Source of the DNA: Alphaproteobacteria bacterium
GTDB lineage: Bacteria > Pseudomonadota > Alphaproteobacteria > UBA8317
Reading direction: 5' to 3'
Assembly: GCA_038131935.1 (NCBI GenBank)
Contig: JAYPQH010000032.1
Coordinates: 179,302 to 243,301, forward strand
Length of the DNA stretch: 64,000 nucleotides
Part shown: piece after piece, positions 815 through 49,740 of the stretch
How the letters are laid out: each line of letters begins with the position of its first letter
Numbering within the stretch: the stretch's first letter is position 1
The notes under the pieces: generated by a model
The model's database searches: none
What the model saw: only the letters and a program-made list of their open reading frames with translations
Told to the model about the DNA's origin: nothing
Program-made: the position numbers and the translations under genes

Positions 815-1987
815 ATGATAAAAACTTTTTCTGCTTTGGTAACGGGTTCAATGCTGTTAGCCACCACGGCTTTTGCTGGTGGTCATGGCGTAGATCTACC
901 AAAACAACTTGCTTGGACGGCATATGGCACAGGATCAGCAGGATACAACCAATCCGTTGCTATTGGCGCAGCACTAAAAGATGCAGCTGGTGTAAGCCTT
1001 AGGGTATTACCTGGTAAGAATGATATCGCCCGCACAGAGCCTTTGAGACAGGGTAAAGTGCAATTCTCAGCGACCGGTGTGGGTGGGTCGTTCATGGCTC
1101 AAGAAGGCGTCTTTCAGTTTGGCGCAAAAAATTGGGGCCCACAGAATGTTCGGGTATTGATGGCAAACAACGGGAGGACAGTAGGTCTGTCTACGTGGAT
1201 TGCTGCCGACATCTGTGAAAAAGTTGGAAAAGCTGGCTGTGATGGATTCGAATATTCTGACTTGAAGGGCATGCGTGTAGCATGGGTTAAAGGTGCACCA
1301 GCCCTCAATGTAAATAACGAAGCCTATCTTGCATATGGTGGTTTGACCTGGAATGACGTCCAAAAAGTTGAGTTTGGTGGATTTGGAGCCAGCTGGAAAG
1401 GACTCATCAATGGCGACGTGGATGCTGTTTTTGCATCAACGAATTCTGGCCGCGTGTATGAAGCTGAAACAGGTCCTCGTGGTGTTTTCCTGCCACCTAT
1501 CGATGCCAACAATAAAGAAGGACTGGCAAGAATGGCTGCCATCGCACCTTTCTTCTCGCCTATGATGGCCAAGGTTGGCGCAACTATTGACGGAAAGCAG
1601 CCACGTCCGACCGCTGGCTATGCCTATCCGGTGCTTACCGCAATGGAAGGTCAAGACGAAAACCTTGTCTACAACATGACCAAGGCCATGGTAACCTTGT
1701 TCGATAAATATGACGGCAAAGCCCCTGGGATCTCAGGCTGGGCACAAGAAAAACAAAACTACAAGTGGGTTGTTCCTTATCACAAGGGCGCCGTAAAGTT
1801 TTGGAAAGAAATGGGCGTTTGGAATGATGAGCATGATGCACATAATAACAAACTTATTGACCGCCAAAAAACACTCCAAAAAGCTTGGTCAGATCTAGCA
1901 GCAACCAATCCAAGCGATTGGGAAGCAGCGTGGCAGAAAACACGCCGCGACGCACTTCAATCTGGTGGCTTTGAGGTTGTTTTCTGA
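815..1987 (+). CDS. TAXI-family TRAP transporter solute-binding protein
   Basis: Signal peptide (AFA|GGH); WTAYGTGSAGY, LRVLPGKND, DLKGMRVAW and VVPYHKGA motifs; followed by a fused TRAP permease. Confidence 0.9.
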   Translation: MIKTFSALVTGSMLLATTAFAGGHGVDLPKQLAWTAYGTGSAGYNQSVAIGAALKDAAGVSLRVLPGKNDIARTEPLRQGKVQFSATGVGGSFMAQEGVFQFGAKNWGPQNVRVLMANNGRTVGLSTWIAADICEKVGKAGCDGFEYSDLKGMRVAWVKGAPALNVNNEAYLAYGGLTWNDVQKVEFGGFGASWKGLINGDVDAVFASTNSGRVYEAETGPRGVFLPPIDANNKEGLARMAAIAPFFSPMMAKVGATIDGKQPRPTAGYAYPVLTAMEGQDENLVYNMTKAMVTLFDKYDGKAPGISGWAQEKQNYKWVVPYHKGAVKFWKEMGVWNDEHDAHNNKLIDRQKTLQKAWSDLAATNPSDWEAAWQKTRRDALQSGGFEVVF

Positions 1988-2014
1988 TTTCCTTAACTTT
2001 TTGTTTTTTACAAA

Positions 2015-2041
2015 ACCCCATCTCTTTTTGAGAGATGGGGT
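2015..2041 (+). terminator. Stem-loop after the SBP gene (terminator or mRNA stabiliser)
   Basis: ACCCCATCTCT-TTTTG-AGAGATGGGGT, 11-bp perfect stem. Confidence 0.65.
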
Positions 2042-2064
2042 CTCACTGCTTCACGAGGTTTGTG

Positions 2065-4022
2065 ATGGACGCTCAATCTAACACCGAAAACAAGCAACAA
2101 CAGGCCCACTCTGGGATATCACAGCTTTTCATTATTATGTTGACCATTTCCGGCGTGTTATTGGCTGTTCATCAATTATTTAACCTACAAATGTTTAATA
2201 TTGTCCTCATCGAAGGACGTTATCTATATCTTTTAGGGGCGATATTTTTATCCCTTACTTTTGTTTGCTTTCGTATCAACGGGGAAAAGACAGCTCCGGT
2301 TCCTTGGTATGACTGGACATTGGCAGCCATGGCAATTGCGGTCATGGGATATTTTGCAATCACGGCGGAAATAAGCCTTGATAGTGGGTGGGAATATGCA
2401 GCGCCTTTTAATGCTGTCGTGGCTTCAGTCTTAGGTTACTTCCTGATCCTAGAGGGCACACGTCGGGCTGGTGGTAATACAATTTTTTGCTTTGTACTTC
2501 TCTTCTCACTTTACCCCACTTTTGCTGATATGATGCCTGGCCCTATTGAAGGATTCCCTCTCCATTTTTGGACGTTGTTCCTTACCATCTTATCTCTTCT
2601 GAAAGTTCATTCGGCATCCCTATGCGTGCTTTTGGAAATCTTGTCATTGGCTTCATTCTCTTTGGAGCTTTGCTGCAAAAAACAGGAGGGGGCGCATTTT
2701 TCAATGACCTAGCACTCTCTTTAGTTGGTCGCTTCCGCGGTGGTGCTGCTAAGGTTGCAATTTTTGCCTCTGGTCTTATGGGATCAATGTCTGGCTCCGT
2801 CATCTCGAACGTTCTCACAACTGGAGCATTTTCTATACCAGCCATGCAGCGCACAGGTTTTACAAAGAGATTTGCAGCAGCAACAGAAGCTTGTGCCTCC
2901 ACCGGTGGCGTTCTGATGCCACCTATCATGGGCGCCACGGCATTTATCATGGCATCATTTCTTGCGCGTCCCTATTACGAAATCGCACTTGCAGCTGCAT
3001 TGCCTTCTATTCTGTATTATTTTGGACTTTTTGTTCAAATCGATGCTTATGCTGCAAAACATGGACTCAAAGGTTTGCCAGCTGAAGATGTCCCCAAAAT
3101 GGGAAGGGTGTTGAAAGAAGGCTGGCTTTATCTAACTGTATTCGGGGTTTTAATATTCCTCATGATGGTCATGCGACAAGAGGCTCTTGCACCATTTTAT
3201 GCAGTTGTTTTGCTTCTTGTTATCAACCAAGTCATCAAAAAATATAGATTTACCCGAAAAAGCTTTGCACAACTTGTTGTCTCTGTTGGTGAGGGACTCT
3301 CAGAACTTACGGCCATTTTGCTTGGCGTTGGCCTTATTGTTGGAGCATTTTCAGTAACCGGCCTAGCAGGAACATTGGTGAATGACATTGTGTTTATCGC
3401 GGGTGACTCTGTCATGGCGTTATTGTTTATGGGTGCTTTAACAGCATTTATTTTTGGCATGGGTATGACGGTTACCGCTTGTTACATTTTTCTTGCAATT
3501 GTTCTCGCACCAGCACTCGAGCTAGCAGGTCTGAACACGTTGGCTGTGCACTTGTTCATTCTTTATTGGGGCATGGTGAGTTACATCACCCCACCGGTTG
3601 CATTGGGCGCATTCGCAGCCGCAACCCTTGCGGGAGCCAAGCCATTGGCTACTGGTTTTGAAGCTATGCGTCTAGGAGGGACCATTTATATTGTTCCATT
3701 TTTCTTTGTGTTAAACCCCGCTCTTGTAGCTGAAGCACCAGCTTTGGAAGTTCTGTTTGTTTTTGTAACGGCTGTTATTGGGGTCGCACTTTTAAGTATG
3801 GCACTACAGGGCCATACTGGGATTTTTGGTGCATTAGGTAAAGGTGTTGTTTCCATCATCAATCGCACCACCTTGTTCATTGCTGGACTCTTTTTTGCAA
3901 TGCCGGCCAGTGAATTTATTGGTTTAGGCCATTGGGAACTCTCTGGAATTGGACTTGTTCTTTCAGCACCAGTCTTATTTCTATCTCTGAAACGGCGTAA
4001 CGCAATGTTGGCTCAAGAATGA
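2065..4022 (+). CDS. TRAP transporter fused 4TM/12TM permease (frameshift near 2565)
   Basis: ORFs 2035-2712 and 2568-4022 join; GRFRGGAAKVAI, ASTGGVLMPPIMGATAF and ITPPVALGAFAAA motifs. Confidence 0.9.
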
Positions 4023-4800
4023 ATGAAGCTGAAAGGATGGAAAAAGACCGTAAATTTGTGTACGCGCTGGCTCGTGGGCTTGATATTTTAAAGGCCTTTA
4101 GCCCCGATGAAGCTGAATTGAGTAATCTTGAGCTTTCAGAAAAGACAGGGTTACCAAAACCCACAGTATCACGTTTCACCTACACACTCACTGAGCTTGG
4201 TTATCTTGTTACAGCACCAAGAACTGGAAAGTTCAGGTTGGGCCCTCTGGTTCTATCATTAGGCTACACAATGCTCGCCTCGGTCGACTTGAGAGAGCGC
4301 GCGAAGCCATTTATGGATGACATTGCGCGTCGTGATCATGTTACTGTTGCCTTGGGAACACGAGATAAACTTAGCGCTGTATATATCGAGGTTTCCAAAG
4401 GTAGCCAAATCATCACAATTAGCAGAAATGTTGGCTCTAGGCTTCCCATACATAATACCGCGATGGGAAAGCCCTTATTGCTGCATTACCTGCAACAGAG
4501 TATCAATATCTCTTGAAAGCCCTCGCAGAAAAATTTCCAGAAGATATAAGAGCAATAGAAAAATCTTTGGAAATGGCTCGCGAAGACATTGAAAAATACG
4601 GATTTTGCACATCCATTGGAGAATGGATTAAAGATGTGAATGCTGTAGCTTCACCACTATTTTCAGCAGACCGCAACGAGATTTACGCCATCAATGTAGG
4701 AGGACCTTCATTCATGATAAATCAAGAGCGACTATGCGAAGAATTGGGACCAAGATTGGTAGATGTTGTAAAAGCCCTCACGCCAAGCGCATTGACATAG
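4019..4800 (+). CDS. IclR-family transcriptional regulator (frameshift near 4470)
   Basis: N-terminal HTH (ALARGLDIL...TGLPKPTVSRFTYTL); GSRLPIHNTAMGK; C-terminal GEWIKDVNAVASP in ORF 4513-4800. Confidence 0.92.
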
Positions 4801-4818
4801 TCATAACAGTCAAAATTT

Positions 4819-4838
4819 GTGAGGGGCCTCCCCCTCAC
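4819..4838. terminator. Hairpin between convergent iclR-like and ggt-like genes
   Basis: GTGAGGGG-CCTC-CCCCTCAC. Confidence 0.65.
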
Positions 4839-4846
4839 TATTAGAT

Positions 4847-6448
4847 TTAACCCAAAACCAAGGCCATGCCATCTTTGCGCGGATCAGACCCAGCCACATA
4901 GCCGCCTCCAGGTAAGGTTTGGATAAGCTGAGCTCCACCGAATCCAAGCCCCTCTGACCATGGAATTATTTTGATATCATGACCTGCATCACGCAAAGAT
5001 TGAACGAGGCTTTGCGGGAATGCCTCCTCAACTTCTACCTGATTTCCCTCCATAAATCTCCATCGAGGCGCATCAATTGCTGTCTGAACATCCTGCCCAA
5101 GGATTTGTGTTCGCACCAACATTTGCAGATGTCCTTGTGCTTGCATAAAAGCACCCATCACACCTGTGGCCATTCTGAGTCCGTTTGCTCCTGTAATAAA
5201 CCCCGGAATAATCGTATGGAACGGCCTTTTCATGGGGGCAACTTCGTTTGGATGTCCTTTTTCCATGGTAAAATTCGCACCGCGATTTTGGAAATGTATC
5301 CCCGTTCCAGGAACAGATACACCCGATCCCATTCCCATATAATTTGATTGAATAAAAGACACCATCATACCATCTTCGTCAGCAGCACAGAGATACACAG
5401 TACCACCGCCACCAGGCTTACCAGCCCCAAACACTTGAGCACGATTTGGATCAATCAAAGCTGCGCGTTCTGCTCCATACGAAGGATCAAGAAGCCGCGC
5501 TGGGTCGAACGCCATGTAATCAGGGTCTGCTACATGTGCAAGCAAATCAGAGAATGCTAACTTCATGGCCTCTATTTGAAGATGCGTTCCGCGCCAATCT
5601 TCACCGTCCCATTTGTCAAACGAGGTATGCTTTAGAATGTTTAGCGCGATGAGCGCAGCAATACCCTGTCCATTGGGCGGTATTTCATAAAGTGTGGTCT
5701 CACCAAAATCCATCTGCAATAGATCAACCCAATCTGCCTGATGCGCCTCTAGATCCGCAGCCGTCATACTCCCACCGGTTTCTTTCGCAAACGCAATGAT
5801 TTTGGCAGCCAATTCACCTGTGTAGAAATCCTCTCCTTGCGTCTTTGCGATGGCCCTGAAGCTGTCTGCCATACCGCGGTTTATAAAACGCTGTCCCACA
5901 TTTGGTACATGTCCGTTGTCTGTGAACATTTCAATGAAACCTGGTTGATCACGGAGGATTTCATGATCACGAGACCATAGTTTTTGCACAACAGGTGTCA
6001 CAATGAACCCCCGCTCCGCTTGCGAAATAGCATCTTCAAACAATGACTCAAACGGTAGCTTTCCAAATTTTTGCCACAATGCTGACCATCCACGTACAAC
6101 ACCTGGTACTGTGACCGCGTCCCAACCTCGCTTTGGAATACCACCTTTGGCATCAAAAAACTCCCTTGTCCACGCGGCGGGTGCTCGGCCAGAGGAATTC
6201 AAACCATGGACCTTCTCACCATCATGTACAATCGCAAAAGCATCCGAACCAAGACCACAGCCCGTAGGCTCAACCAGTGTTAACATAGCGGCCGTGGCTA
6301 TGGCCGCGTCAGCTGCAGACCCACCCTTTTCAAGGATACGCAATCCTGCCTGCGTTGCGAGGTATTGTGACGTTGCCACCGCTGCACGCCCAAATACGGG
6401 CGTTCGCCTTGTCATGGTCACTGGGTAATAAGGGTAGTTTATACTCAT
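4847..6448 (-). CDS. Gamma-glutamyltransferase-family Ntn hydrolase (YwrD/HpxW-like subgroup)
   Basis: ATSQYLA, VEPTGCGLGSDAF, EIPPNGQG, nucleophile GG|TVYL, SFIQSNY, KRPFHTIIP, GVMGAFMQAQGH, SDPRKDG. Confidence 0.9.
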   Translation of the reverse strand: MSINYPYYPVTMTRRTPVFGRAAVATSQYLATQAGLRILEKGGSAADAAIATAAMLTLVEPTGCGLGSDAFAIVHDGEKVHGLNSSGRAPAAWTREFFDAKGGIPKRGWDAVTVPGVVRGWSALWQKFGKLPFESLFEDAISQAERGFIVTPVVQKLWSRDHEILRDQPGFIEMFTDNGHVPNVGQRFINRGMADSFRAIAKTQGEDFYTGELAAKIIAFAKETGGSMTAADLEAHQADWVDLLQMDFGETTLYEIPPNGQGIAALIALNILKHTSFDKWDGEDWRGTHLQIEAMKLAFSDLLAHVADPDYMAFDPARLLDPSYGAERAALIDPNRAQVFGAGKPGGGGTVYLCAADEDGMMVSFIQSNYMGMGSGVSVPGTGIHFQNRGANFTMEKGHPNEVAPMKRPFHTIIPGFITGANGLRMATGVMGAFMQAQGHLQMLVRTQILGQDVQTAIDAPRWRFMEGNQVEVEEAFPQSLVQSLRDAGHDIKIIPWSEGLGFGGAQLIQTLPGGGYVAGSDPRKDGMALVLG

Positions 6449-7157
6449 GTTCCGTGGCTCTCTCTTGTTGTTCGAATTTCAATATGCTTCACCATATTGG
6501 GTATTTCTACCAATCGGTCCACATAAATTCCTGGTAAATGAATATGGTCAGGATCAAGACTTCCAGCAGGAACAATTTTTTCGACCTCAGCAATACATAC
6601 ACGACCACATGACGCAACATCTGGGTTAAAATTCCTTGATGTCTTTCGAAAAATAAGGTTCCCCGCGGTATCTGCAATTGATGCCCGAATAACAGAAACA
6701 TCAACAGTTATCGCCTCTTCCAAAATATATTCACGGCCATCAAAAACTCTTGTTTCCTTACCTTCAGCGACCTTGGTACCTACCCCTGTGGGGGTATAAA
6801 ATGCGGGAATTCCTGCACCGCCAGCACGCATTTTTTCAGCTAATGTTCCTTGTGGGGTAAAATCACAAGCAATCTCGCCCGCAAAATACTGCCGTACGAA
6901 CTCAGGATGATTACCGGGATAAGAGGCAATTGCTTTTTGATATGGCCTGCTTCAAGAATTAACCCTAAAGCTTTTCCAACAGCACCGGCATTGTTCGCCA
7001 CAACCGTAATATCTTTGGTGCCCTTCTCATGTATCGCAACGAGCAGATATTCTGGTGTGCCAACCAGACCAAATCCACCAACAGCCATACTCATTCCATC
7101 AAAAACAACATCCTCTATCGCTGATGCCGGACTTTCATAAATTTTTGCCAAAACCAT
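6445..7157 (-). CDS. 3-oxoacid CoA-transferase subunit A (frameshift near 6935)
   Basis: DGMSMAVGGFGLVGTP, NNAG; after restoring one base in the A-run: SYPGN...TPQGTLAEKMRAGGAGIPAFYTPTGVGT...HLPGIYVDR. Confidence 0.9.
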
Positions 7158-7199
7158 CTCCTTGTAATGATCAAAAATCGTAACTTCAAATGGATTACT

Positions 7200-8003
7200 T
7201 TAACTTCCAACCCGCAGAGGATTTGTCAAACCACGCAAGCAGGCAATAAGACTTAACGAAGTAATCTTGCCAGTCCCTGGGTTTTCTTCTGTAGGTATAT
7301 TTTCAATACTCATTTGCAACTTGGCAGAATCTGAATCAACAACGATATGGTGGGTGTTGCGCGTCAGAGCAGGATCAGCCCAAATCTCTAGCTTTGTGAG
7401 ATCCGGCCCAATACCAGCCAATCCTAATGCTGCAGCCACATTCACGTTCGCTGGAAACGCCGCGGCTCCTTCTCGTGCGGTCCCTTTGAAAACGCACGTC
7501 GCCTCCTCCAGCATATCAACATCTATCCCTATTTCACGAAGGTAAGGGGCTTTGCGTAGAGACATTGGTGGCTTACGGGTAATCATCGTTACCTCATAAA
7601 TCTTTCCTTCTGCCGCCGCACGAACAGCATCAAAACCAAGCAACGCGCCGGTTGCCAGAATAATTTGCCCCGCTGATTCATGAGCCATGGCAACTATTTC
7701 AGGGTGTGCAAGAATACCAGCTCCACTCACAGTCACCAATTTCTTGCCATTCTCTAGGGTAGGAATTGCGATGGAGGGGAATGCAGCAGTGGGTGCACAA
7801 TCTACCACAACATCCGCATGATCAGCTATCTGGTTGTTATCAACGCATGGAACATCGAGACCATGCTTTAACAAAAACTCTTGTGCTTTCTCCTTCTGAC
7901 CTGAGCTCACAGCAACAAGTTCAAAGTCCTTGAGATGACCCTCGACAAAAGAAGACACAACTTTACGACCAATTGTACCAATACCTGCAATAGCGATTTT
8001 CAT
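7200..8003 (-). CDS. L-aspartate dehydrogenase (NadX-like) homolog
   Basis: GIGTIG Rossmann motif, GALLGFD, TRKPP, FPANVNVAA, ADP...NTHHI, ENPGTG. Confidence 0.85.
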   Translation of the reverse strand: MKIAIAGIGTIGRKVVSSFVEGHLKDFELVAVSSGQKEKAQEFLLKHGLDVPCVDNNQIADHADVVVDCAPTAAFPSIAIPTLENGKKLVTVSGAGILAHPEIVAMAHESAGQIILATGALLGFDAVRAAAEGKIYEVTMITRKPPMSLRKAPYLREIGIDVDMLEEATCVFKGTAREGAAAFPANVNVAAALGLAGIGPDLTKLEIWADPALTRNTHHIVVDSDSAKLQMSIENIPTEENPGTGKITSLSLIACLRGLTNPLRVGS

Positions 8004-8104
8004 CCAAATACACTCCTCGTGACAACGCTTCCTGATCCACGGTCAAAATCGCGCTGACAGACAATAAAAGTAGGGCGGGTCGATGTGATCTGTTGACATC
8101 ATGC

Positions 8105-8117
8105 TTCGCATCATGAA
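8105..8117. promoter_or_regulatory. Candidate operator TTCGCA-N3-TGAA, copy 2, inside a putative promoter spacer
   Basis: TTCGCATCATGAA between TTGACA (8093-8098) and AACGCT (8116-8121). Confidence 0.4.
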
Positions 8118-8194
8118 CGCTTCTTGCAGGCTTGACAACCAATTGCTTAAGTCTTTCGACTAATATAACGCGAAATCGAAGTTTGGGGAATCAA

Positions 8195-9174
8195 ATGATG
8201 AAGAAACGAAATATTTTAGGTCTTGCTGCAGCTTTGTCTATGGGTGTGGCTGGTATATCCTACGCTGGGGGCCATAGTGCGGACATTCCATGTTCCACAG
8301 CGAAGTTAATCGTGCCTTGGGGTGCAGGTGGCGGAACGGATGTAATTTTCCGTCAAATTGTCGATGTTGCGAATAATCAAGGGATGAAACCGCAACTTCA
8401 GGTGGTTAATGTTGGAGGGCAAGGTGGTAACAAGGGTGCCAAGCAAGCCGTCGCAGCAAAACCTGATGGTTGCACCTTGTTCGCGATGCACCAAAGCGCC
8501 ATCACAAGTTACCTAACAGGACGTGTGAATTTCACTTGGGATGGGTTTGAACCTATTGCATTGATGACAAATACTCCATCAATCTTTGGGGCTGCAGGAA
8601 ATACATCATACAGCAATCTCAATGAGTTGATTGCAGAGATCAAGAAAAACCCAGGAACAGTAACTGCTGGTGCAACCTTGGGCTCTACGTCGCAAGTTGT
8701 TTTTCTTCTTACAGAGGACGCTACAGGCGGAAAATTCAAGTATGTGTCGTACGACGGAACCAAACAACGTATGACTGCTCTTCTGGCAGGCAACATTCAA
8801 GTTGGGGAAATCAATCTTGCAGCTGCAAAGAAATATATTGAAACAGGTAAACTCAAAGCGTTGGGCGTCATGTCAAACAAGCGTTTATCTGGGCTAGACG
8901 ATATCCCAACGGCTAAGGAGCAAGGGCTTGATGTTGTTTTTGGTGTGGAACGCGGTATCGTTGCGCCCAAGGGAACATCTGAGGCAATCGTTAAGCATTA
9001 TGCTGCAGCATTTCAAAAAGCCGCTTCTGACGAAAAGTTAATTGCAAGCATGCTCTCAAAGGGACATTCCTCGAATATGTAGGACCCTCAGAATATACTG
9101 CAAAGTTGGATGAAACCACCAAAAAGTGGACCACCATTTTCGATGGCATGGGTTTGCTAAAGGTGAAAAACTAA
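8195..9174 (+). CDS. tctC: Tripartite tricarboxylate transporter substrate-binding protein (TctC/Bug family; frameshift near 9060)
   Basis: Signal peptide (SYA|GGH); IVPWGAGGGTD, NVGGQGG, AKPDGCTL, IPTAKEQG, APKGT; corrected C-terminus ends at TAA 9172-9174. Confidence 0.9.
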
Positions 9175-9227
9175 ACAAGACTATAAAAAATTACCTTGGA
9201 ACAGAGGTGACATAAATTTTATGATAG

Positions 9228-9255
9228 ATCAGGGGCTTTTTAGCCCCTGATTTTT
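9228..9255 (+). terminator. Intrinsic terminator-like hairpin after tctC
   Basis: ATCAGGGGCT-TTTT-AGCCCCTGAT followed by a T-run. Confidence 0.7.
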
Positions 9256-9292
9256 CAGTTCTCTTTTTAACTTGACGTGGGATGCGTGATCC

Positions 9293-9796
9293 ATGAATCG
9301 TGATTTTTGGACAAGTTTGTTTTTGATATTTTTATCATTCGTACTGTATCGGGAAAGTACGTTCATTGAAGATGTTGATTATGGGAGTATGAAAGCTGAT
9401 GTCTGGCCAACCTTCTTGGTCATGCTGCTGGTTGTTTTATCAATATCTATGCTTGTGAAATCCCTAATGGAATACCGACAGGCAACGCAAAGCTCCACTC
9501 AAGACAATGAGAATGCTGAACAAACAGATTCCGTCACTGGTTGGACTTGGTTGATCAACCCAATGATAGTTTTTGTTCTATTCTTTCTATTCCTCATCAC
9601 CTTAGATTACCTTGGCATGCTCATCGGAGGTATCTTTTTTACGTTCATTACGATGACATTATTGGGGCAAATATCATGGCGGACTGTACCTATCTATTTT
9701 GTAATTTCAGTGATTAGCATCTCAGGGATGTGGGCAATTTTCACCTTTGGCTTACGCGTTATGTTGCCAGAGGGCGTACTTTTCACTGTTTGGTGA
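9293..9796 (+). CDS. tctB: Tripartite tricarboxylate transporter small membrane subunit
   Basis: Four hydrophobic segments, WP motif, C-terminal LRVMLPEG; lies between tctC and tctA. Confidence 0.85.
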   Translation: MNRDFWTSLFLIFLSFVLYRESTFIEDVDYGSMKADVWPTFLVMLLVVLSISMLVKSLMEYRQATQSSTQDNENAEQTDSVTGWTWLINPMIVFVLFFLFLITLDYLGMLIGGIFFTFITMTLLGQISWRTVPIYFVISVISISGMWAIFTFGLRVMLPEGVLFTVW

Positions 9797-9802
9797 GGAA
9801 TA

Positions 9803-11452
9803 ATGATGACTGATGCAATTATCTTGGCTGCACAAAGTATTTTTCTTGATCCCGTCACGTTAGGGCTGATTGCTTTAGGGACTTTTAGCGGACTGATAGC
9901 AGGATCGATTCCCGGTTTTACGATCGCAATGGGTGTTATCCTCGTACTTCCATTTACCTTTGGGCTAAGCCCAATCCAAGGCGTTGCCACCATGATTGGC
10001 GTTTTCGTAGGAGGGCTTTCCGGAGGTTTGTTGTCCGGCATGCTGATTGGAATTCCTGGCACACCTTCTTCAGTTGCCACGACGTTTGATGGTTTTCCAA
10101 TGGTCCGTTCAGGACGAGCAGGTTTTGCTCTTGCCTTGGGCCTATGGTCATCTTTTTTCGGAGGAATCATCTCTGCTATTTTGTTGGTGACCCTAGCCCC
10201 TCAGCTTGCTTTTCTTGGTTTGGAATTTGGGCCTTGGGACTATTTTATGCTCATCGTCTTCGCCCTCACTATTGCTGTAAGTTTATCAAGTCAAAATATG
10301 CTCAAAGGCCTCACAGCAGGAATCTTGGGATTGATCGCCGCAACAGTTGGAGAAGATGAAATCAATGGTGTTGCACGGTTTTCTTTTGACACCGAGGCAC
10401 TCAGGCAAGGATTTGCTTTTTTACCGGTGCTGATTGGCCTGTTTGCCTTCTCTCAATTGCTGTCTGATGTAGAGGATAGAACCAAGGCAAAATCATCCAT
10501 GATGAATGCTGAAGGGGAATCTGTACGTATCGAGCATCTCCGCGCTATTCGAGAAATATTTTCTCGTTGGATTAATCTTGTTAGGTCTAGCCTGATAGGC
10601 GTGTTTGTTGGAATTCTACCAGCGGCTGGAGGTTCTATTTCCAATATTTTGGCCTATGATCAGGCACAGAAAGCATCAAAAGTCCCTGAACAATTTGGAA
10701 AAGGCGTATCAGACGGCGTTATAGCACCTGAAGCCGCCAACAATGCCACCGCGGGTGGGGCACTTATGATGATGATGGCCCTAGGTATCCCAGGTGATAT
10801 CGTGACCGCGGTCATGATCGGCGCTTTGATGATACATGACATTGTCCCGGGTCCAACCTTTATTCAAGACAAGCCTGTGTTGGCTTATGGTGTTTTTATA
10901 GCTTTTTTCTTTGCTAACTTTGTTATGGTCTTCATGATGTCTGGGGCATTGCGTGTATTTTTGAAGGTAGCGAGGGTTCGGCTAAATATTCTTGTTGCTG
11001 TCATATTGGCTTATTGTGCCTTTGGTGTTTTTGCCTTGCACAATATTGGCTTTGACCTCTGGGTGCTCTTTGGGTTCGGCATCGTTGGTTATATCATGAA
11101 AAAGCTTGGTTTCCCTCTAGCCCCGATGATTTTGGGTGTTGTGTTGGGGAAACTCGCTGAGATCAATCTCTCAAGAGCCTTGGCGATTTCTGATGATATC
11201 ATGCTATTTGTTTCTCGCCCTTGGTCATTATTTTTCTTCCTGCTTGCCATCGTGTCGGTTATTTTTCCATTTTTCCAGCAAGCACGTGACGAAAGCCTTT
11301 TGAAACGATTTTTTGTACCCTTGAGCTTGGTTGTTCTTGCTTTACCATTATTCGTAATGGACTCTTATACACGTATGATTGTTGGTATCTTGATGATTGT
11401 TTTTGCCGCATGGCAGCTTCGCAAGAAATCTTTCGTCCCTCAAAATGGTTAA
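9803..11452 (+). CDS. tctA: Tripartite tricarboxylate transporter large permease
   Basis: GSIPG, IGIPGTPSSVATTFDGFPM, GVIAPEAANNA, LGIPGD, PLAPMILG. Confidence 0.93.
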   Translation: MMTDAIILAAQSIFLDPVTLGLIALGTFSGLIAGSIPGFTIAMGVILVLPFTFGLSPIQGVATMIGVFVGGLSGGLLSGMLIGIPGTPSSVATTFDGFPMVRSGRAGFALALGLWSSFFGGIISAILLVTLAPQLAFLGLEFGPWDYFMLIVFALTIAVSLSSQNMLKGLTAGILGLIAATVGEDEINGVARFSFDTEALRQGFAFLPVLIGLFAFSQLLSDVEDRTKAKSSMMNAEGESVRIEHLRAIREIFSRWINLVRSSLIGVFVGILPAAGGSISNILAYDQAQKASKVPEQFGKGVSDGVIAPEAANNATAGGALMMMMALGIPGDIVTAVMIGALMIHDIVPGPTFIQDKPVLAYGVFIAFFFANFVMVFMMSGALRVFLKVARVRLNILVAVILAYCAFGVFALHNIGFDLWVLFGFGIVGYIMKKLGFPLAPMILGVVLGKLAEINLSRALAISDDIMLFVSRPWSLFFFLLAIVSVIFPFFQQARDESLLKRFFVPLSLVVLALPLFVMDSYTRMIVGILMIVFAAWQLRKKSFVPQNG

Positions 11453-11532
11453 GGATCAAACACCCTAAGCAAATGTCATGACGCCCTTTTTGCAAAAAAT
11501 GGTTCCTTAAATGAACGATAATGAGACATATT

Positions 11533-13985
11533 ATGAACAAAAACCTTGACTTTTTGGGTGCTGGTGACCCTGGAGCGCTGGATTTTCTGCTTCAACATCT
11601 CAATGGCAATACATCTCAAAAAGATTGGGATATATGGTTCGCACAATTCAGCTGGCTATATGCGGATATCAATCCACTCAAAAACCTAAACCGTTGCCAG
11701 AATTTGTTTCATCTGATCCCGATGCGAAGGGACATATAGAGCATTTTTGTGGTACAATTGGATGGGAAGTAGGCCATATTTTAAATGAAGAGAAACGCCA
11801 TTGGCTGCTTGACGCTGCCAAAACACAAAAGCAGTCATCTGTATTTACTGTAGCCGAAGCATTTGAACTTTTGTGTAAAGCAGAAGCATTTGAGGCGATT
11901 ACGAAAAAAAGGTTACCAACCATCAAGACCTTCTCTATGGAAGGAGGCGAAGGATTTCTCGTTGCCGTTGAATCGGTGATTAAGCATGCCCAAGAAATCA
12001 ATATTGTTCTTGGGGGTATGCATCGCGGCAGAATGACCCAAAATGCATTATTATTTGGGGCCAGCCCAGAAGATATGATTGGCCAAATTCAAGGCAAACC
12101 AGACCTGCCTTTTGACCTTGGAGCCTCCTCAGATGTGCCTTATCATTTGGGGGTTGCTGGCAAGCGCTCCGATGACAAGGTTATTTGGCTTTCCCCCCAC
12201 CCTTCGCATTTGTCCGTTGTTGCACCTGTTGCTATGGGTTATGCGCGCGGCCAAGAAGAACAATGCTTAAGCATTATGTTGCATACAGATGCTGCGTTTG
12301 CAGGCCAAGGAGTTAACATGGAGTTGCTCCAATTATCAGGCCTAGACGGTTATCACGTTGGTGGAAGTATCCATTTGATTTTAAATAATCAAATTGGCTT
12401 TACAACATTAGAAGAACAAGCTCGAACAGCAAGAAATAGCAGTGACATAGCTCGTATGCTCGACATACCTATATTACATGTTCATGGGGATGATATTGTA
12501 AGTCTCATAAAAGCCGGTTTTATTGCGGTAGAATACAGACGACAATTTGCCACGGATGTTGTCATTGAAGTACTGTGCACAAGGCGGCGCGGTCATAACG
12601 AGATTGATGACCCAAGCTATACAGCGCCTATTATGCAACAGCAAATTGATGCACGCCCTCCCATCACAACCATCACCCAGCGAAAATATCAACTGACACA
12701 ACCCGACATTTCTGATTTTAACCAGCGGATTAATGATGCATTCAATTTGGATAATCTTTCAACAGATAACCAAATTCCAGATGCCCCTGGCCTGGTAAAT
12801 GATGTTGAAGCGGTATTATGCAAACCAGTTAAAACTGGCATCATGTTAGACAAACTCATTCAAATTGGGGAACAACTAACGACTTGGCCTCATGAATTCA
12901 CCATTCACCCACGGGTGGCTCAATTGCTCACCAAACGAGCTGAAGCGTTGCGTTCACATGGCAAAATAGATTGGGGGTTTGCCGAAACATTGGCTTTGGG
13001 TGGTTTGCTTGATGAAGGCTATTCCGTAAGGCTTTCCGGCCAAGATACTGTACGTGGTGCCTTTTCCCAGCGTCATTTGCATATCTATGATCAGAATGTC
13101 GGAACCTCTTTCGAACCTTTGTCCCAGCTTGGTGACGCAGAAATATTTAATTCACCTTTGATTGAGAATGCTGTGCTTGGGTTTGAATATGGTCTTAGTG
13201 TGTCGGCCCCTAACAAATTGGTCATTTGGGAGGCACAATTCGGTGATTTTCTGAATGTTTGCCAAGCCATGTTTGATCAATTTGTAACAGGCGGTGAAGA
13301 TCGTTGGTTGCAACAATCTCGGCTTGTTATGCTTCTTCCTTATGGTTTTGACGGAGGTGGCCCAGACCATTCAACCGGGCATATTGAAAGGGTGTTATCA
13401 AGAGCAGCGCGAGGTAATGTTCGTGTTGCCAATCCAACCACACCAGCCAATTATTTTCACCTTCTTCGTCGTCAAATGCATGACCATCTGGCCAAACCAT
13501 TGGTTGTTTTTTCCCCTAAGCTTCTCCTAAGACATCCTCTGTGCCTCTCAGATGTTGATCACTTCACCAAAGGTCATTTTGAAACTTTCAAGACTTGGAA
13601 TATTGAAAATGCACAACAGATTGCATTTTGTCATGGTAAAATGGCCGTTCGCATGCTTGAGGAGTGCAACAAGCGTGATTGTCATGATTGGGGTATCGTT
13701 TCACTCGAACAACTTTATCCCTTGGACAGAAATAATTTATTGAAATTAAAAGAGCTTCTTTCAACTAAGAAATTATTCTTTGTTGAAGAAGAACCCGCCA
13801 ACCTAGGGGCTTTTACATATCTCGATAGAAAGTTGGAATCTATATTCCAACAAACCTTTCATCGTATTGGTCGGCCCGAAGCTGCATCACCCGCTGTTGG
13901 GTGGAAAAGTTGGCATGACAAAGAAGAAAACTTACTTTGGACACAAATATTTGGGAACAATAATCATGACAAAATTGCCAGATGA
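11533..13985 (+). CDS. Divergent 2-oxoglutarate dehydrogenase E1 (SucA/Kgd)-like ThDP enzyme (frameshift near 11680)
   Basis: MHRGR, DVPYHLG, PSHL, HTDAAFAGQGV, NNQIGFTT, GHNEIDDP, RLSGQD, VLGFEYG, WEAQFGDF, GPDHS; about 817 aa. Confidence 0.85.
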
Positions 13986-14619
13986 GATCATTGAACGGCT
14001 GAAGAAGCTTGCCACCCCAACCATTGCGAACGCAATTGATGAAATTGGCCAAGGCGGTATCATGAAAGGTATTCACGCTGTAGGCGCAGGTTTTAAATGT
14101 GCGGGACGCGCCGTAACCGTTCGTCAAGTGACAGGGCCATTAGGAAGTTTCAAAGTTGAGGACTTTCGGGTTGGTCATATGATCGATGCAGCAGGTCCTG
14201 GTGATATTATTGTGGTCGCCAATGGTGGTGCGGAGGTGTCCACATTTGGGGGCATGGCAGCCTATGCTGCAAAACATCGCGGTATTGAGGGACTGGTTGT
14301 CGATGGGGGTGTAAGAGACCGTGAAGAAATTATCGAGTTTGGTTTTGATGTTTTTTCTGTCCATGTCACCCCTACTCCTGGAAAAACGCGTTTGAAAGTT
14401 GAGCAAATCAATGAAACGATTGTAGCTTGTGGGGTAACGGTTAATCCAGGTGACGCAATACTCGCTGATGGTAGTGGTGTTGCGGTTCTACCTCGAGATC
14501 ATGCTGAGCACATCATCACCTTAGCGGAAGGGTATGCACGCGATGATGAAAAGGCTTTGGAAGAATTGGCAAATGGCCTAAGCTTTACTGAGGCCTTAAA
14601 GAAATTTGCCAAAATTTAA
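13966..14619 (+). CDS. RraA / 4-hydroxy-4-methyl-2-oxoglutarate aldolase family protein
   Basis: AGRAVTV, PGDIIVV, FGGM, VDGGVRD, VNPGDAILADGSGV; ATG 13966 overlaps the end of the E1 gene. Confidence 0.88.
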   Translation: MTKLPDEIIERLKKLATPTIANAIDEIGQGGIMKGIHAVGAGFKCAGRAVTVRQVTGPLGSFKVEDFRVGHMIDAAGPGDIIVVANGGAEVSTFGGMAAYAAKHRGIEGLVVDGGVRDREEIIEFGFDVFSVHVTPTPGKTRLKVEQINETIVACGVTVNPGDAILADGSGVAVLPRDHAEHIITLAEGYARDDEKALEELANGLSFTEALKKFAKI

Positions 14620-14723
14620 GGTGCTTCATGAGTTCAAGGTTCACATGTCATAGACTTTGGTCTATGTGATGGAGCTGTTTATTGGGATAACCCCCAATGA
14701 ATCATCTAAAAAGGGAGAGTATA

Positions 14724-15767
14724 ATGATCAGAACAGTTACCAAAGCCCTCGTTATTGTTGGGGTGGCAAGTTCACTCAGCATGGGCACGGCTTTGGCTGG
14801 CGGCCATGGCGCCACAGTCGAAGGACCAAAAGTTTTTTGGAAACTTTCAACATGGGGAAACCCACGTGCATTTACCAAAGGTATTGAACACCTATCCGAG
14901 CAGTTGGCCAAAAAAACAGGCGGCAACTTTACCTTAAAGATTTTTTACGGTGGACAGCTGTCAAAGAACAAGGAAAACCTTGACGGTTTGAAGGCAAATG
15001 CCTTCGAAATGGCAACATTTTGTAACTTTTATCACCCCGGCAAAAACCCGGCTTTGATGGTTATGACCATGCCATTTTTACCTGTGAAAGATTTTGATTC
15101 AGCTGCACGTGTGCGCCGTGGACTTTATGAGCATCCCATCGTCAAAGAAGAAATGGCGAAATGGAATGCGATGTATTACGAGTCAAGTCATCTTCCACAA
15201 TATGAATTTGTTGGTAAAGGTGATGCCCCTATGACACTTGAGGGTTTCAAGGGTATGCGCGTTCGTGCCGGTGGTGGCGTTGGTGTCGCCATGGAAGTTT
15301 TGGGCGCGACACGCCAGTCCATGCCAGCACCTGAAGTCTATACCGCAATGCAGCGTGGTACCGTTGACGCCGCATCATTCCCCTTCTCTTATGCTCATGG
15401 TGCATACAAAACTTTTGAAATTGGCGACTGGTTCACGTCTAATCTGTCTCCTGGCACCTCAGATTGCCCCATCGTTGTAAACAAAACAGCTTTTGATAAT
15501 CTTCCAAAACAGTATCAAGACCTCATGATGGGTATGCGTGATGAAGTGATGGAAGTTTATCGTAACGCATACAAAGCAGCGGATGAAAAATATCTGCCAA
15601 TGTTCCGTGCTAAATTAAAAGAAATCACCTACTCAGATGCAGAGCTTGCTCGTTTCCAGGAACTGGGTGGTCGTCCTGTTTGGGACAAGTGGGTTGCAGA
15701 CAACAAGGATAAGTTTGATGCTCAAGCGATCCTTGACCTAACACTCAAACTTGCTAAGGGCGAATAA
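14724..15767 (+). CDS. dctP: TRAP transporter solute-binding protein (DctP family)
   Basis: Signal peptide (ALA|GGH); TGGNFTLKIFYGGQL, KGMRVR, EVYTAMQRGTVDA; GGGAG RBS. Confidence 0.92.
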   Translation: MIRTVTKALVIVGVASSLSMGTALAGGHGATVEGPKVFWKLSTWGNPRAFTKGIEHLSEQLAKKTGGNFTLKIFYGGQLSKNKENLDGLKANAFEMATFCNFYHPGKNPALMVMTMPFLPVKDFDSAARVRRGLYEHPIVKEEMAKWNAMYYESSHLPQYEFVGKGDAPMTLEGFKGMRVRAGGGVGVAMEVLGATRQSMPAPEVYTAMQRGTVDAASFPFSYAHGAYKTFEIGDWFTSNLSPGTSDCPIVVNKTAFDNLPKQYQDLMMGMRDEVMEVYRNAYKAADEKYLPMFRAKLKEITYSDAELARFQELGGRPVWDKWVADNKDKFDAQAILDLTLKLAKGE

Positions 15768-29237: not shown

Positions 29238-30254
29238 TTACAGAGCAGCTTTGATTTTCTTTGCTGCGTCTTCACTCACCCAAGTTGTCCAGATGTCTTC
29301 ATGCTTCACCAAAAACTCTATGGCTGCATCAGCACCATTCGCTTGATTGTCTGTCATGAAGACCAACATGCTGTTCATGACATCACCAGGATACGTCCTC
29401 TTTGCAAGGTAAGCCGCTGCGTCTCCGCCACGGTTTGCAAAATCCGTTGTAATGATCGAACGCACCTCTGATTTTGTCCAACTTGAAGGCTTTGGATTTG
29501 CACATTCTTGTTCTGGTTTAACAATACAACCATCCCAGTTTTCTGCGCCAGCCCACTTTGCTTCAAAAGGCAACATTTGAAGATTATACTTGCCCACAAC
29601 CGCAGTTGGGTTCCAATAATAACCAAACCAATATTCACCTCTGTTCGCCGCCTTAGCAATAGAACCATCAAGGCCCGCAGCTGAACCTGGGTCAACCAAA
29701 ACCCATCCTTTGGCTTCCATATCGAACGCGCGATAGAGGTTAGCATTGGCAAGTTGGCAACCCCAACCAGCTGGGCATCCCATGAACGCGCCTTTGCTAT
29801 TGTCTTCAGCATAAGGGAACAGATCCGGACGCGCGAGTACTTTTTCCACTGTATCTAACTCAGGATGATCCTTACGGAATTTCGCGGTCACCCACCAACC
29901 TTCGCCAAGACCTGTGATAGGTGCTCCATTAATTCCTTGTAAACGACCCTCATTGATCGCTTTCTCCAGAGGTCCTCGGTATGCATTAACCCACATCTCT
30001 GGTGCAACGTCTGGCTTTGCCTTTTCATTCATGGATGTGAATGTTGGCATCGTATCCCCAGGAATAACGCTTGCGTTACACCCATAACCTTCTTGAAGAA
30101 TAAATTGATCAACATTGGCCATCAGCTGTGCTGAGGCCCAGTTCATTTCCGCAATTGTGATATCACCACAGTCTGCGCGCGCAATGTCAGCCGTAGATAG
30201 GCTCACGGTTACGGCAGCCGCGCACAAAATGGCGGTTCCGGTTACCCGTTTCAT
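29238..30254 (-). CDS. Quaternary-amine (betaine/proline-type) ABC substrate-binding protein
   Basis: Signal peptide, CGDITIAEMNWASA, GYGC, CPAGWGC, GYYWNP; AAGGAG RBS before ATG 30254. Confidence 0.88.
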   Translation of the reverse strand: MKRVTGTAILCAAAVTVSLSTADIARADCGDITIAEMNWASAQLMANVDQFILQEGYGCNASVIPGDTMPTFTSMNEKAKPDVAPEMWVNAYRGPLEKAINEGRLQGINGAPITGLGEGWWVTAKFRKDHPELDTVEKVLARPDLFPYAEDNSKGAFMGCPAGWGCQLANANLYRAFDMEAKGWVLVDPGSAAGLDGSIAKAANRGEYWFGYYWNPTAVVGKYNLQMLPFEAKWAGAENWDGCIVKPEQECANPKPSSWTKSEVRSIITTDFANRGGDAAAYLAKRTYPGDVMNSMLVFMTDNQANGADAAIEFLVKHEDIWTTWVSEDAAKKIKAAL

Positions 30255-36852: not shown

Positions 36853-37170
36853 TAACTCACAGAAATACAATCATATTCTTAGCAAAATGTCAGAATGCAA
36901 AACCATAAAATACTTCTGCTATCTGGCATGGTATGTGCACAAATCTTGTGTAAAATTTACCGAACCGAGAGGTATGCGATCTTGAAGCCCGCTGCATATG
37001 TGAATGAGTACAAAGTTTTGAAAATGAATTGCTCTTTGCAAGGACAACAGGATAGCTGGCCAGGTACCGGCCCACATTGCTTCACCACAATGTCATCTCA
37101 TAGGTTGGAAAGTAGGCAAAGATACGTCGCCGTTAAGACAGCAAAAATGGAACATCACATGGATTACAAC

Positions 37171-49100: not shown

Positions 49101-49740
49101 GCAAAACCTAACAAAGGATGATATCGTCGATGGAGGTACAAATGCTACGGCCACAGGTGATATTCTTCATTTTACCGACAATAATGGCGCCAGCAATGAT
49201 TTGGACCAAGTGACCAATTTTGAAAAAATTGTGTTGGGTGATGCCACCAGCTCTGTGACAACCTTGGACCAGCTCATCACGCAGGGTGAGACATTGATTG
49301 TAGACGCCCGATCTATTTCAGCTGGCAATAGCTTTACCTTTAATGCAACCGCTGAAACCAATGGACATATCGATATCACTGGTGGAGCTGGGGCAGATAT
49401 CATCAAAACAGGATCAGGAAACGATCTCATTGATGGCTTTGGGGGTGCTGACCAAATAACAACGGGCTCAGGTACTGATGTTATTACCATTACGCTTACA
49501 GGCCAAGATAATACGATAAATGATGCGGTGCGTATTAAGGACTTTGAAGATGGCGTGGATAAAATTGATATTGTTGGAACCGATGCATCAAATGTGCTCA
49601 TTACATCTGGACAAGGAAGTTTTACAGGCACCACCGTGTTGAGTTTCAACAATGGTCAGTTTGAAGAAATTTTGGCTATCATTGAAGGTATTGATGACAG
49701 CCTCATCACCAATAATGGTGTTGGTGCGGATATTATCTAA
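37171..49740 (+). CDS. Giant cadherin/RTX-like repeat surface protein, about 4,190 aa (split by several indels and one in-frame TAA)
   Basis: Consecutive + strand ORFs 36895-49740 continue the same modules: N-terminal region, cadherin-like domains, KG...DTNGD...APVGANVISPLTTL domain, 27 Gly/Asp-rich modules, C-terminal IKDFEDGVDKID. Start could be 37147, 37159 or 37171. Confidence 0.8.
44425..47302 (+). repeat. Near-identical 1005-bp tandem repeat, about 2.9 copies, inside the giant gene
   Basis: TGGCGGTGGCAATGATCAGATTGCG at 44425, 45430 and 46433; match of the third copy ends at 47302. Confidence 0.95.

Follow-up and report, generated by a model that had tools for sequence, protein, structure and literature searches.

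Seven unrelated exported proteins encoded in the genome of a marine alphaproteobacterium (Alphaproteobacteria bacterium, UBA8317, GCA_038131935.1; 2.48 Mb in 67 contigs, 89.9% complete) carry the tripeptide Gly-Gly-His directly behind a predicted signal peptidase I site, an accumulation that is beyond chance. On balance this N-terminal tag is probably a natural ATCUN site for Cu(II)/Ni(II) on abundant periplasmic proteins; since Gly-Gly-His is the classic copper- and nickel-gripping peptide, the tagged proteins may have a second role in the handling of trace metals.

Gly-Gly-His at the export cleavage sites of the genome

The seven tagged proteins, retrieved by a six-frame scan of the whole genome, comprise one cytochrome c2 and six solute-binding proteins, each of the latter from a different Pfam family, and all of them read AXA↓GGH[GS] (the arrow marks the predicted cut), with GGHG in three and GGHS in four, Gly or Ser thus occupying position 4 in every case. 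Each protein exceeds the curated Pfam cut-off of its own family, with bit scores (cut-off in brackets) of 54.4 (27) for NMT1_3, 119.1 (27) for TctC, 113.8 (23.4) for DctP, 155 (27) for Phosphonate-bd, 62.1 (26) for SBP_bac_1, 220.5 (31.7) for Peripla_BP_6 and 30.7 (21.3) for Cytochrom_C in the case of the tagged cytochrome. Cleavage sites were assigned by a home-made heuristic of the von Heijne type together with the comparison of orthologues. Depending on the signal-peptide score required, the tag is present in six of 169 genes (at least 6.5) or in seven of 275 (at least 5.5), while the expected number of GGH at the cut site is 0.027–0.047 (Poisson P from 5e-14 to 1.5e-11). In the proteome as a whole (2518 called genes) GGH is not over-represented, with 118 occurrences observed and 128 expected; a general enrichment of His at position +3, raised in the preliminary description, did not emerge in this genome, where His at +3 is ordinary once the GGH class is set aside. 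The tagged paralogues are a minority in their own families (one of five DctP, one of three TAXI and one of two TctC proteins). The tag is found on Sec substrates and on one twin-arginine (Tat) substrate, so that it would act after export. The His codon is CAT in all seven tags, an observation that is informative only against the codon usage of the genome. As for metal enzymes, urease alpha, a Ni enzyme, is encoded in the genome, and no multicopper oxidase was found in the 89.9% of it that is covered.

Three of the tagged genes lie in the window, i.e., the whole 64-kb stretch of DNA that was analysed (Table 1).

Table 1. Tagged genes and one untagged binding-protein gene of the window (the arrow marks the predicted cut).
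Feature	Positions	Strand	Signal peptide	Tag	Junction	Tag codons
TAXI-type (NMT1_3) solute-binding protein	815-1987	+	815-877	GGHG, 878-889	...TAFA↓GGHGVD	GGT GGT CAT GGC
TctC (tripartite tricarboxylate transporter) binding protein	8195-9174	+	8195-8266	GGHS, 8267-8278	...ISYA↓GGHSAD	GGG GGC CAT AGT
DctP (TRAP) binding protein	14724-15767	+	14724-14798	GGHG, 14799-14810	...TALA↓GGHGAT	GGC GGC CAT GGC
OpuAC-type binding protein (Pfam OpuAC), untagged, internal negative example	29238-30254	-			...ARA↓DCGD	

The preliminary description had placed GGH after AXA in the TAXI, TctC and DctP proteins, had assigned these to three distinct families and had left the fourth binding protein untagged, and all these statements hold in both coordinates and residues. 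Its count of three tagged proteins is real and is to be extended, as the whole genome holds seven, one of which is a cytochrome. Convergence at the protein level, also proposed there, is borne out by the differences in families, signal peptides and codons; in fact, the lack of similarity between the signal peptides, together with the differing codons, indicates that no DNA duplication took place. The reading frame of TctC is interrupted at about 9057-9065 in the present assembly and is restored by one extra A after 9057 in metatranscriptome contigs from two studies. RNA contigs from four metatranscriptome runs, belonging to four studies, include pieces of the TAXI and DctP genes in three runs and of TctC in two, the depth of such contigs being no measure of expression rank and DNA carry-over being possible. 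AlphaFold2 models the mature DctP chain with an overall pLDDT of 94.9, residues 1-3 scoring less than 50, and no secondary-structure element precedes the strand that begins at residue 12; the tip is accordingly modelled as disordered, sterically free and outside the packed fold.

Insertion of the tag and its occurrence in relatives

Comparison with orthologues reveals the tag as an insertion of 4-6 residues between the signal peptidase site and the conserved mature N-terminus. In particular, A↓ADIPC becomes A↓GGHS-ADIPC in TctC, A↓(A/Q)NVEGP becomes A↓GGHG-ATVEGP in DctP and A↓ADAKLPGQ becomes A↓GGHG-VDLPKQ in TAXI, while in cytochrome c2 GGHGAS stands ahead of GDAAxGE. The TctC tag is absent from 119 of the 120 best homologues, which start with A↓A(D/P/E)IPC, the only tagged one being P0241 (99% identity), which carries GGHG. 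Similarly, 117 of the 120 best DctP homologues start untagged with A↓(A/Q)NV(D/E)GP, the exceptions being the window's own cluster, P0002 (GSHSS) and P0047 (GSHAVAK), and 149 of 150 TAXI family representatives are devoid of the tag, with P0460 (82% identity, GGHG) as sole carrier; the DctP and TAXI counts were made by eye, as the signal-peptide heuristic missed P0047 and P0460.

Within the genus, the TAXI orthologue (76% identity) is untagged and reads LALA↓ADAKLPGQ, while the DctP orthologue carries GGHSA. In the sister species the tag of the LivJ-like protein is identical, and neither TAXI nor cytochrome c2 is tagged, which makes the tag dispensable. Close variants retain G-[G/S]-H amid changing neighbours, as in TctC (GGHS versus GGHG at 99% identity), cytochrome c2 (GGHGAS versus GGHAAS at 97%) and DctP (GGHGA, GGHSA and GSHSS). 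Since most orthologues do not have the tag, the comparison indicates that it was gained repeatedly and independently in this lineage. A DNA pattern search of G001 covered A-G-G-H only, and 51 of its 53 matches were examined.

Outside the source genome the motif takes the form [D/G/E/A]-[G/S/A]-H. In the cytochrome c2 family X-X-His is present in 117 of 120 relatives, mostly from marine Rhodobacteraceae and distributed across many genera, and the His is invariably third after an [A/V/L]-x-[A/S] cut site. The linker between this His and the GD motif consists of 2, 3, 4, 5 and 7 residues in 47, 47, 15, 4 and 4 sequences, respectively; as the His is fixed at the third place while the linker varies, its position is set by the distance from the N-terminus rather than by the fold. 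Position 2 of the 117 tagged cytochromes is G, S, A or E and never Pro, with Glu in three of them (AEH twice and GEH once); DAH occurs in two relatives, and Asp or Glu is common at position 1. The cut register can be anchored by a solved relative, whose crystal chains of 116 residues begin with GDAAKGEK, while the 137-residue sequence of the same cytochrome c2 has 21 extra residues ending in ...APAFA; the tagged relatives retain the A-P-[A/V]-F-A context of this protein, which is cleaved after AFA. A class-wide search for the cytochrome in 201 genomes returned only six matches at E <= 1e-25, of which four loci were set aside because of their orientation.

The preliminary description mentioned GGH and DGH starts in other marine Alphaproteobacteria, a statement confirmed by these cytochromes and by two marine Rhodobacteraceae, whose chromosomes were sampled at spaced positions for 800 kb each. 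Of the predicted exported proteins in these samples (96 and 78, respectively), 4 and 3 have [GADES][GASE]H at offset 0, and offsets 1-8 yield one occurrence per genome; the tips include DAH, GGH, AGH and GSH on binding proteins and cytochromes, with the albumin tripeptide DAH on a Yoonia binding protein. In a Yoonia strain the tips GGH, DAH, AGH and DGH occur on TctC, on XylF-like and TauA-like proteins and on cytochrome c2. The control genomes G011 and G007, with 23 predicted exported proteins each, constitute a weak control. Along 1.37 Mb flanking 80 cytochrome c2 loci of Rhodobacteraceae, the predicted exported proteins form 79 clusters, 4 of which have His at +3, with a single convincing tagged protein of 168 residues that starts with DGH (locus L144); these neighbours are syntenic and are therefore a poor sample.

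Proposed metal binding and alternative functions of the tip

In the proposed mechanism, signal peptidase I would cleave after AXA, on the Sec substrates and on the Tat substrate alike, and free a flexible H2N-Gly-Gly-His-(Gly/Ser) tip outside the fold. A single Cu(II) or Ni(II) ion would then be coordinated with square-planar geometry by the amino group of residue 1, the backbone amides of residues 2 and 3 and the imidazole of His. The carriers are periplasmic proteins of high copy number (TRAP, TTT, TAXI and ABC binding proteins and cytochrome c2) and would thus represent a distributed, high-capacity and high-affinity periplasmic metal site, which may work as a Cu(II) sink that keeps copper hard to reduce or as a Ni/Cu concentrator for uptake. 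The exact cleavage site, the binding of metal in vivo and the role as sink or concentrator are what we infer.

As outlined in PMC7701195, an ATCUN site is made of four nitrogens, from the amine, two amides and His, and complexes both Cu(II) and Ni(II) at physiological pH; the same source presents GGH and GGHG as classic designed tags, and mentions that Cu(II) on DAHK resists reduction and that Asp or Glu at position 1 lowers the affinity for Cu(II). Given the predicted cut, His is the third mature residue in all seven proteins and in 117 of 120 cytochromes, and Pro is absent from positions 2 and 3 in the seven proteins and the 117 cytochromes. A free alpha-amino group on Gly1 is indirectly supported by the canonical AXA, by the insertion at the cut of the orthologues and by the relative cleaved after AFA. 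Several features count against an ATCUN site: the chemistry calls for neither Gly-Gly nor Gly/Ser at position 4, so that the motif is more restricted than it need be, a minority of the binding proteins is tagged, the sister species does without the tag on TAXI and cytochrome c2, His is not generally enriched at +3 beyond this motif, and Asp or Glu is common at position 1 in the cytochrome family.

The narrowness of the motif (Gly-Gly, and Gly/Ser at +4 in seven of seven) would suit a tag for processing or stability instead of metal binding, which could improve the access of signal peptidase, protect from periplasmic aminopeptidases or be recognised by some partner confined to the lineage (e.g., a chaperone, protease or modifying enzyme). 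Both its location as an insertion right at the point of cleavage and the predicted disorder of the tip agree with such a function. However, a spacer would not require an invariant His3 next to variable residues at positions 1, 2 and 4 and a linker of variable length, and the tag is borne by only a few percent of the exported proteins, which argues against a general processing requirement; a function of this kind is unlikely.

A different outcome would result from a cut two residues later, at A-G-G↓H or A-x-[G/S/A]↓H, which would expose His1 as a mono-histidine, histidine-brace-like site as in CopC. Position 2 is nearly always G, S or A, i.e., limited to residues permitted at -1, so that the later cut fits most of the sequences; in fact, A at -3 with G/S/A at -1 makes a legal site in all seven proteins and in 114 of the 117 tagged cytochromes, and the heuristic itself placed the cut at AGG↓H in two of the seven. 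Moreover, several predicted His1 proteins are encoded in the genome, among them one CopC (predicted ALA↓HSPLQ). On the other hand, the three cytochromes with Glu at position 2 would have this residue at -1, where signal peptidase I does not accept it, and at known signal peptidase sites A is far commoner at -1 than G. All the sequences retain a canonical [A/V]-x-A site, the same at which cleavage of the solved cytochrome c2 relative has been established by experiment, and the later cut is quite unlikely. Finally, functionless insertions of neutral or mutational origin, e.g., by GGN-repeat slippage at the start of the mature coding region, would agree with a tag gained and lost between sister species and missing from most orthologues, but are hardly credible for the same tripeptide at the same offset in seven unrelated genes (P 1e-11 or less), written in differing codons, with X-X-His conserved across many genera in the cytochromes and the position specificity replicated in two other genomes.

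Relation to known N-terminal metal sites and significance

The natural ATCUN examples named in PMC7701195 include serum albumin (Asp-Ala-His), histatins, hepcidin, neuromedin C/K and protamine P2. The proteins described here share with them a predicted free N-terminus, His at the third position, no Pro before His and a flexible tip, and DAH is found in both groups. The examples named in that source all come from eukaryotes and are each confined to a single protein family, whereas in the present case the tip would be made by a bacterial signal peptidase, metal binding is putative, and the tip has been added convergently to numerous proteins of a single periplasm that are unrelated to each other. 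Among engineered proteins, the GGHG-Hin recombinase of Dervan is a designed GGHG fusion (PMC7701195). The designed Gly-Gly-His and Gly-Gly-His-Gly tags are identical in sequence to the tips described here, which read GGHG in three of the seven proteins and GGHS in the other four; the former are man-made fusions, whereas the latter belong to natural genes under selection.

The untagged cytochromes c2 of Rhodobacter (1cxa, 1c2r/1vyd and 1c2n), whose chains match the cytochrome of this genome with E-values from 6e-41 to 2e-27, have the same fold, CxxCH haem site and A-P-A-F-A signal-peptide end. Their mature chains begin 0-2 residues ahead of the GD motif, whereas in the marine relatives and in this genome X-X-His and a linker of 2-7 residues are added. 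CopC and the other His1 'histidine brace' proteins are periplasmic as well, and their N-terminal metal ligand is likewise created by cleavage of the signal peptide. These proteins bind metal via His at position 1 together with residues of the fold and constitute a dedicated copper-protein family, in contrast to the portable tag considered here.

A literature search found no description of Gly-Gly-His tips on these periplasmic proteins; as structural and biochemical work usually strips or swaps the native N-terminus, a site of this type would escape notice. If the ATCUN reading is correct, the tag would represent the first natural instance of an ATCUN site that serves bacteria as a portable tag, convergent on unrelated transport and electron-transfer proteins, and the nutrient-uptake proteins that dominate the periplasm of marine heterotrophs would be tied to copper and nickel handling. 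A far broader and decidedly speculative proposal, which we regard as improbable, is that in marine Alphaproteobacteria X-X-His tips have repeatedly turned the most abundant periplasmic proteins into a genome-encoded pool of Cu(II)/Ni(II) ligands, which would set metal speciation in the periplasm and, once released by lysis or grazing, would feed the strong, chemically unidentified Cu/Ni ligands of seawater. The conditional stability constants of these strong ligands are within the range of ATCUN peptides, and the tips, if they bind metal as proposed, would be a concrete candidate for part of this pool.

Gly-Gly-His after predicted signal-peptidase sites

The residues Gly-Gly-His (GGH) directly past the predicted cut, claimed in the preliminary description for three solute-binding proteins, are confirmed in the TAXI, TctC and DctP proteins, which belong to distinct Pfam families and differ in tag codons across all three; the fourth binding protein is, as stated there, without GGH.

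Solute-binding proteins of the window and other GGH-tagged proteins of its genome (arrow, predicted signal-peptidase cut; positions without contig are those of the window)
Feature	Position	Strand	Sequence at predicted cut	Tag codons	Basis
TAXI binding protein, NMT1_3	815-1987		MIKTFSALVTGSMLLATTAFA↓GGHGVD	GGT GGT CAT GGC	Pfam
TctC binding protein	from 8195		...GVAGISYA↓GGHSAD	GGG GGC CAT AGT	Pfam
DctP binding protein	from 14724		...SMGTALA↓GGHGAT	GGC GGC CAT GGC	Pfam
OpuAC binding protein, untagged	29238-30254	minus	ARA↓DCGD		Pfam
Phosphonate-type binding protein	C32:147532-148524		VAVA↓GGHSSK		Pfam
Cytochrome c2	C31		PLYA↓GGHGAS-GDAAEGEK...CVACH		Pfam
SBP_bac_1 protein	C28		MGYA↓GGHSAP		Pfam
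Peripla_BP_6 protein, twin-arginine signal	C30		ASWA↓GGHSGF		Pfam

Every stop-to-stop frame of at least 100 residues in the window's genome (2.48 Mb, 67 contigs, 45.5% G+C, 89.9% complete; the window being C32:179302-243301) was scanned, giving 4442 frames and 156 GGH. A hydrophobic stretch precedes GGH in 24 frames, seven of which have a typical signal peptide ending in AXA with GGH immediately after it, namely the three window proteins and four others; residue +4 is Gly in three and Ser in four. For the statistics, the longest non-overlapping frames were taken as genes (2518) and signal peptides were scored by a home-made von Heijne-type heuristic. Over the called genes GGH is not enriched (118 observed, 128 expected by composition). 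After the predicted site it is the most frequent tripeptide at all thresholds, occurring in 3 of 89 genes (score at least 7.5), 6 of 169 (at least 6.5) and 7 of 275 (at least 5.5) against an expected count of 0.027-0.047 (Poisson P 5e-14 to 1.5e-11). A general enrichment of His at +3, proposed earlier as a check, did not emerge: in the heuristic's register, His occupies +3 in 5 of 169 genes, four of them GGH proteins, versus none at +2, two at +4 and two at +5. The signal is the GGH motif specifically, with no general X-X-His excess.

Of the seven tagged genes, the four for the phosphonate-type, TAXI, TctC and DctP proteins lie inside 48 kb (C32:147532-195068), 2% of the genome, a clustering that could reflect a transporter-rich island or the trace of a shared history. 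His at +1 is also frequent among the predicted exported proteins, being found in 9 of 169 (score at least 6.5) on several contigs, as in AHA↓HSKNYQ, VHA↓HEVKPA, VWA↓HVIDDP, VGA↓HEFWLEP and the CopC protein (ALA↓HSPLQ); these proteins may represent a further class of metal sites located at the N-terminus.

Insertion of the tag and its setting in the window

Among the 120 best homologues of DctP, 117 start A↓(A/Q)NV(D/E)GP and the window protein places GGHG ahead of ATVEGP; similar tips occur there only in the protein clusters P0002 (73% identity, GSHSS) and P0047 (GSHAVAK). In the same way, 119 of 120 TctC homologues start A↓A(D/P/E)IPC, only P0241 (99% identity) having GGHG-ADIPC, and among 150 TAXI family representatives GGHG is found only in P0460 (82% identity). 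Flanking residues vary while G-[G/S]-H persists. The tag is an insertion, acquired repeatedly. Just one other genome in the collection (1.6 Mb, 84% complete) belongs to this genus and family; it carries the tag on DctP (GGHSA) and on the Peripla_BP_6 protein (AWA↓GGHSGFTNAPTGNTV), and lacks it on TAXI (LALA↓ADAKLPGQ) and cytochrome c2 (ALA↓DGDAAEGE). In the window's own genome 4 of 5 DctP and 2 of 3 TAXI paralogues are untagged, the second TctC ending at a contig end. This mixed state and the untagged paralogues point to a young, lineage-specific tag, gained or lost gene by gene.

DNA near-identical to the TAXI gene occurs in runs, taken from 12 studies, that are labelled as seawater, marine or salt-lake metagenome. 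For seawater metatranscriptome contigs (four runs, four studies), the matches listed include pieces on TAXI from three runs, on DctP from three and on TctC from two, which is no measure of expression level. Compared with the window, these contigs show one-base insertions or deletions at 4464, 6933, 9057 and 11679, and also at 787 and 2004, falling at split genes: an IclR-like pair (4019-4516 and 4513-4800), a second pair (6445-6831 and 6840-7157) and the TctC C-terminus. The window assembly probably carries homopolymer indel errors, and its split genes are therefore not to be taken as pseudogenes. The tagged SBP_bac_1 gene (C28:22076-23400; locus L033, 289-855 and 883-1608) consists of two ORFs, one matching the N-terminal and the other the C-terminal half of the family, probably through the same kind of error. 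On the plus strand, 36895-49740 holds large ORFs with many copies of an Asp/Gly-rich repeat of about 110 residues (consensus ...DGGxGxDxLxFTDxxxxxDELDNVxNxExIxLGDAxT...); the ORFs look like fragments, separated by frame changes, of a single giant repetitive protein of secreted or adhesin-like type.

Tips in cytochrome c2 and in other genomes

When the tagged cytochrome c2 is compared with its 120 best homologues (57-97% identity), X-X-His stands right after the signal-peptide end in 117; Yoonia, Flavimaricola, Cognatishimia, Nereida and further marine Rhodobacteraceae account for many of them. The tripeptides are DGH (69), GGH (21), ESH (8), EGH (6), AGH (4), EAH (3), DAH (2), AEH (2), GSH (1) and GEH (1), preceded by A (115) or S (2) at -1 and by A (74), V (39) or L (4) at -3. 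The linker from His to the conserved GD motif measures 2, 3, 4, 5 or 7 residues in 47, 47, 15, 4 and 4 sequences, respectively. Since the linker varies and His keeps its place after the signal peptide, its position is set by the cut and not by the fold, a placement needed for an N-terminal chelate but not for a role based on the fold.

Two marine Rhodobacteraceae chromosomes, found via cytochrome loci, were sampled as 40 spaced 20-kb pieces (800 kb) each, and [GADES][GASE]H was counted by offset from the predicted cut in predicted exported proteins only. Yoonia sp. R78084 has 4 of 96 at offset 0 (0,0,0,0,0,0,0,1 at offsets 1-8), these being by eye DAH on a sugar-binding-type protein, GGH on TctC, and AGH on a small cytochrome-like and on an NMT1-like protein; Rhodobacteraceae bacterium MIT070201 has 3 of 78 (GSH, GGH, GGH; 0,0,1,0,0,0,0,0), the second GGH on the TctC orthologue. 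Family names in both come from reading N-terminal sequences, with no Pfam basis. Under the identical rule the window's genome has 4 of 169 at offset 0 and nothing at offsets 1-6; a further two of its tags are mis-registered and one is below threshold. In two more genomes from the class, sampled at 400 kb each, the count is 0, but the 23 exported proteins in each are too few to carry weight. The GGH and DGH starts named in the preliminary description for other marine alphaproteobacterial binding proteins are supported by the X-X-His tips in the cytochrome c2 family and on binding proteins and cytochromes of the two Rhodobacteraceae.

The tags as candidate metal sites

In the ATCUN site, as described in the review PMC7701195, Cu(II) or Ni(II) is held by the N-terminal amine, a pair of backbone amides and the nitrogen of His, with both complexes forming at physiological pH; the classic engineered forms are GGH and GGHG, and Cu(II) on DAHK resists reduction. 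Judged by sequence and given the predicted cut, the tags have everything that such a site requires, and it is somewhat more likely than not that they are ATCUN sites. For mature DctP, AlphaFold2 modelling from a 37-row alignment (mean pLDDT 94.9) predicts a free tip, since residues 1-3 stay under pLDDT 50 and residue 12 opens the first strand.

It is unlikely that the tip is instead a non-metal processing or stability tag. A later cut (A-x-G↓H), by which the mature chain would start with His1, is legal for most sequences because position 2 is nearly always G, S or A; however, three cytochromes would then have Glu at -1, the canonical cut site is intact, and a solved cytochrome c2 relative supplies the register, its 116-residue crystal chains beginning GDAAKGEK and its 137-residue sequence adding 21 residues that end in APAFA, a context kept in the tagged relatives, so that this reading is quite improbable. 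A neutral insertion is very improbable.

As ATCUN sites, the tips could act as a Cu(II) sink, a CopC being present and the multicopper oxidase domain (Cu-oxidase_3) not being found in the 89.9%-complete genome (a control search matched 6 of 14 reference genomes), or as a Ni/Cu concentrator, urease alpha being present; the two are inseparable on present data.

No such tips are described in titles and abstract openings of the ATCUN literature on solute-binding proteins, signal peptides or peptidase, the periplasm and Rhodobacter cytochrome c, a coverage from which subscription journals mostly fall outside; the substrate-binding-protein and marine-taxon literature was covered only loosely, and one set of matches listed from it does not contain ATCUN. 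Papers combining ATCUN and periplasmic concern, at the same level of text, peptides, design or the PcoB channel, whose motifs are internal, in contrast to the N-terminal tips found here.

At locus L144, from a metagenome-assembled genome labelled Pseudomonadota bacterium, a small exported ORF of 168 residues that starts AAA↓DGHSPTEHVVEMLN adjoins the cytochrome c2 gene. Its product resembles, by eye, a cupredoxin of the pseudoazurin type and, if it is one, would be another periplasmic electron carrier bearing the tip.
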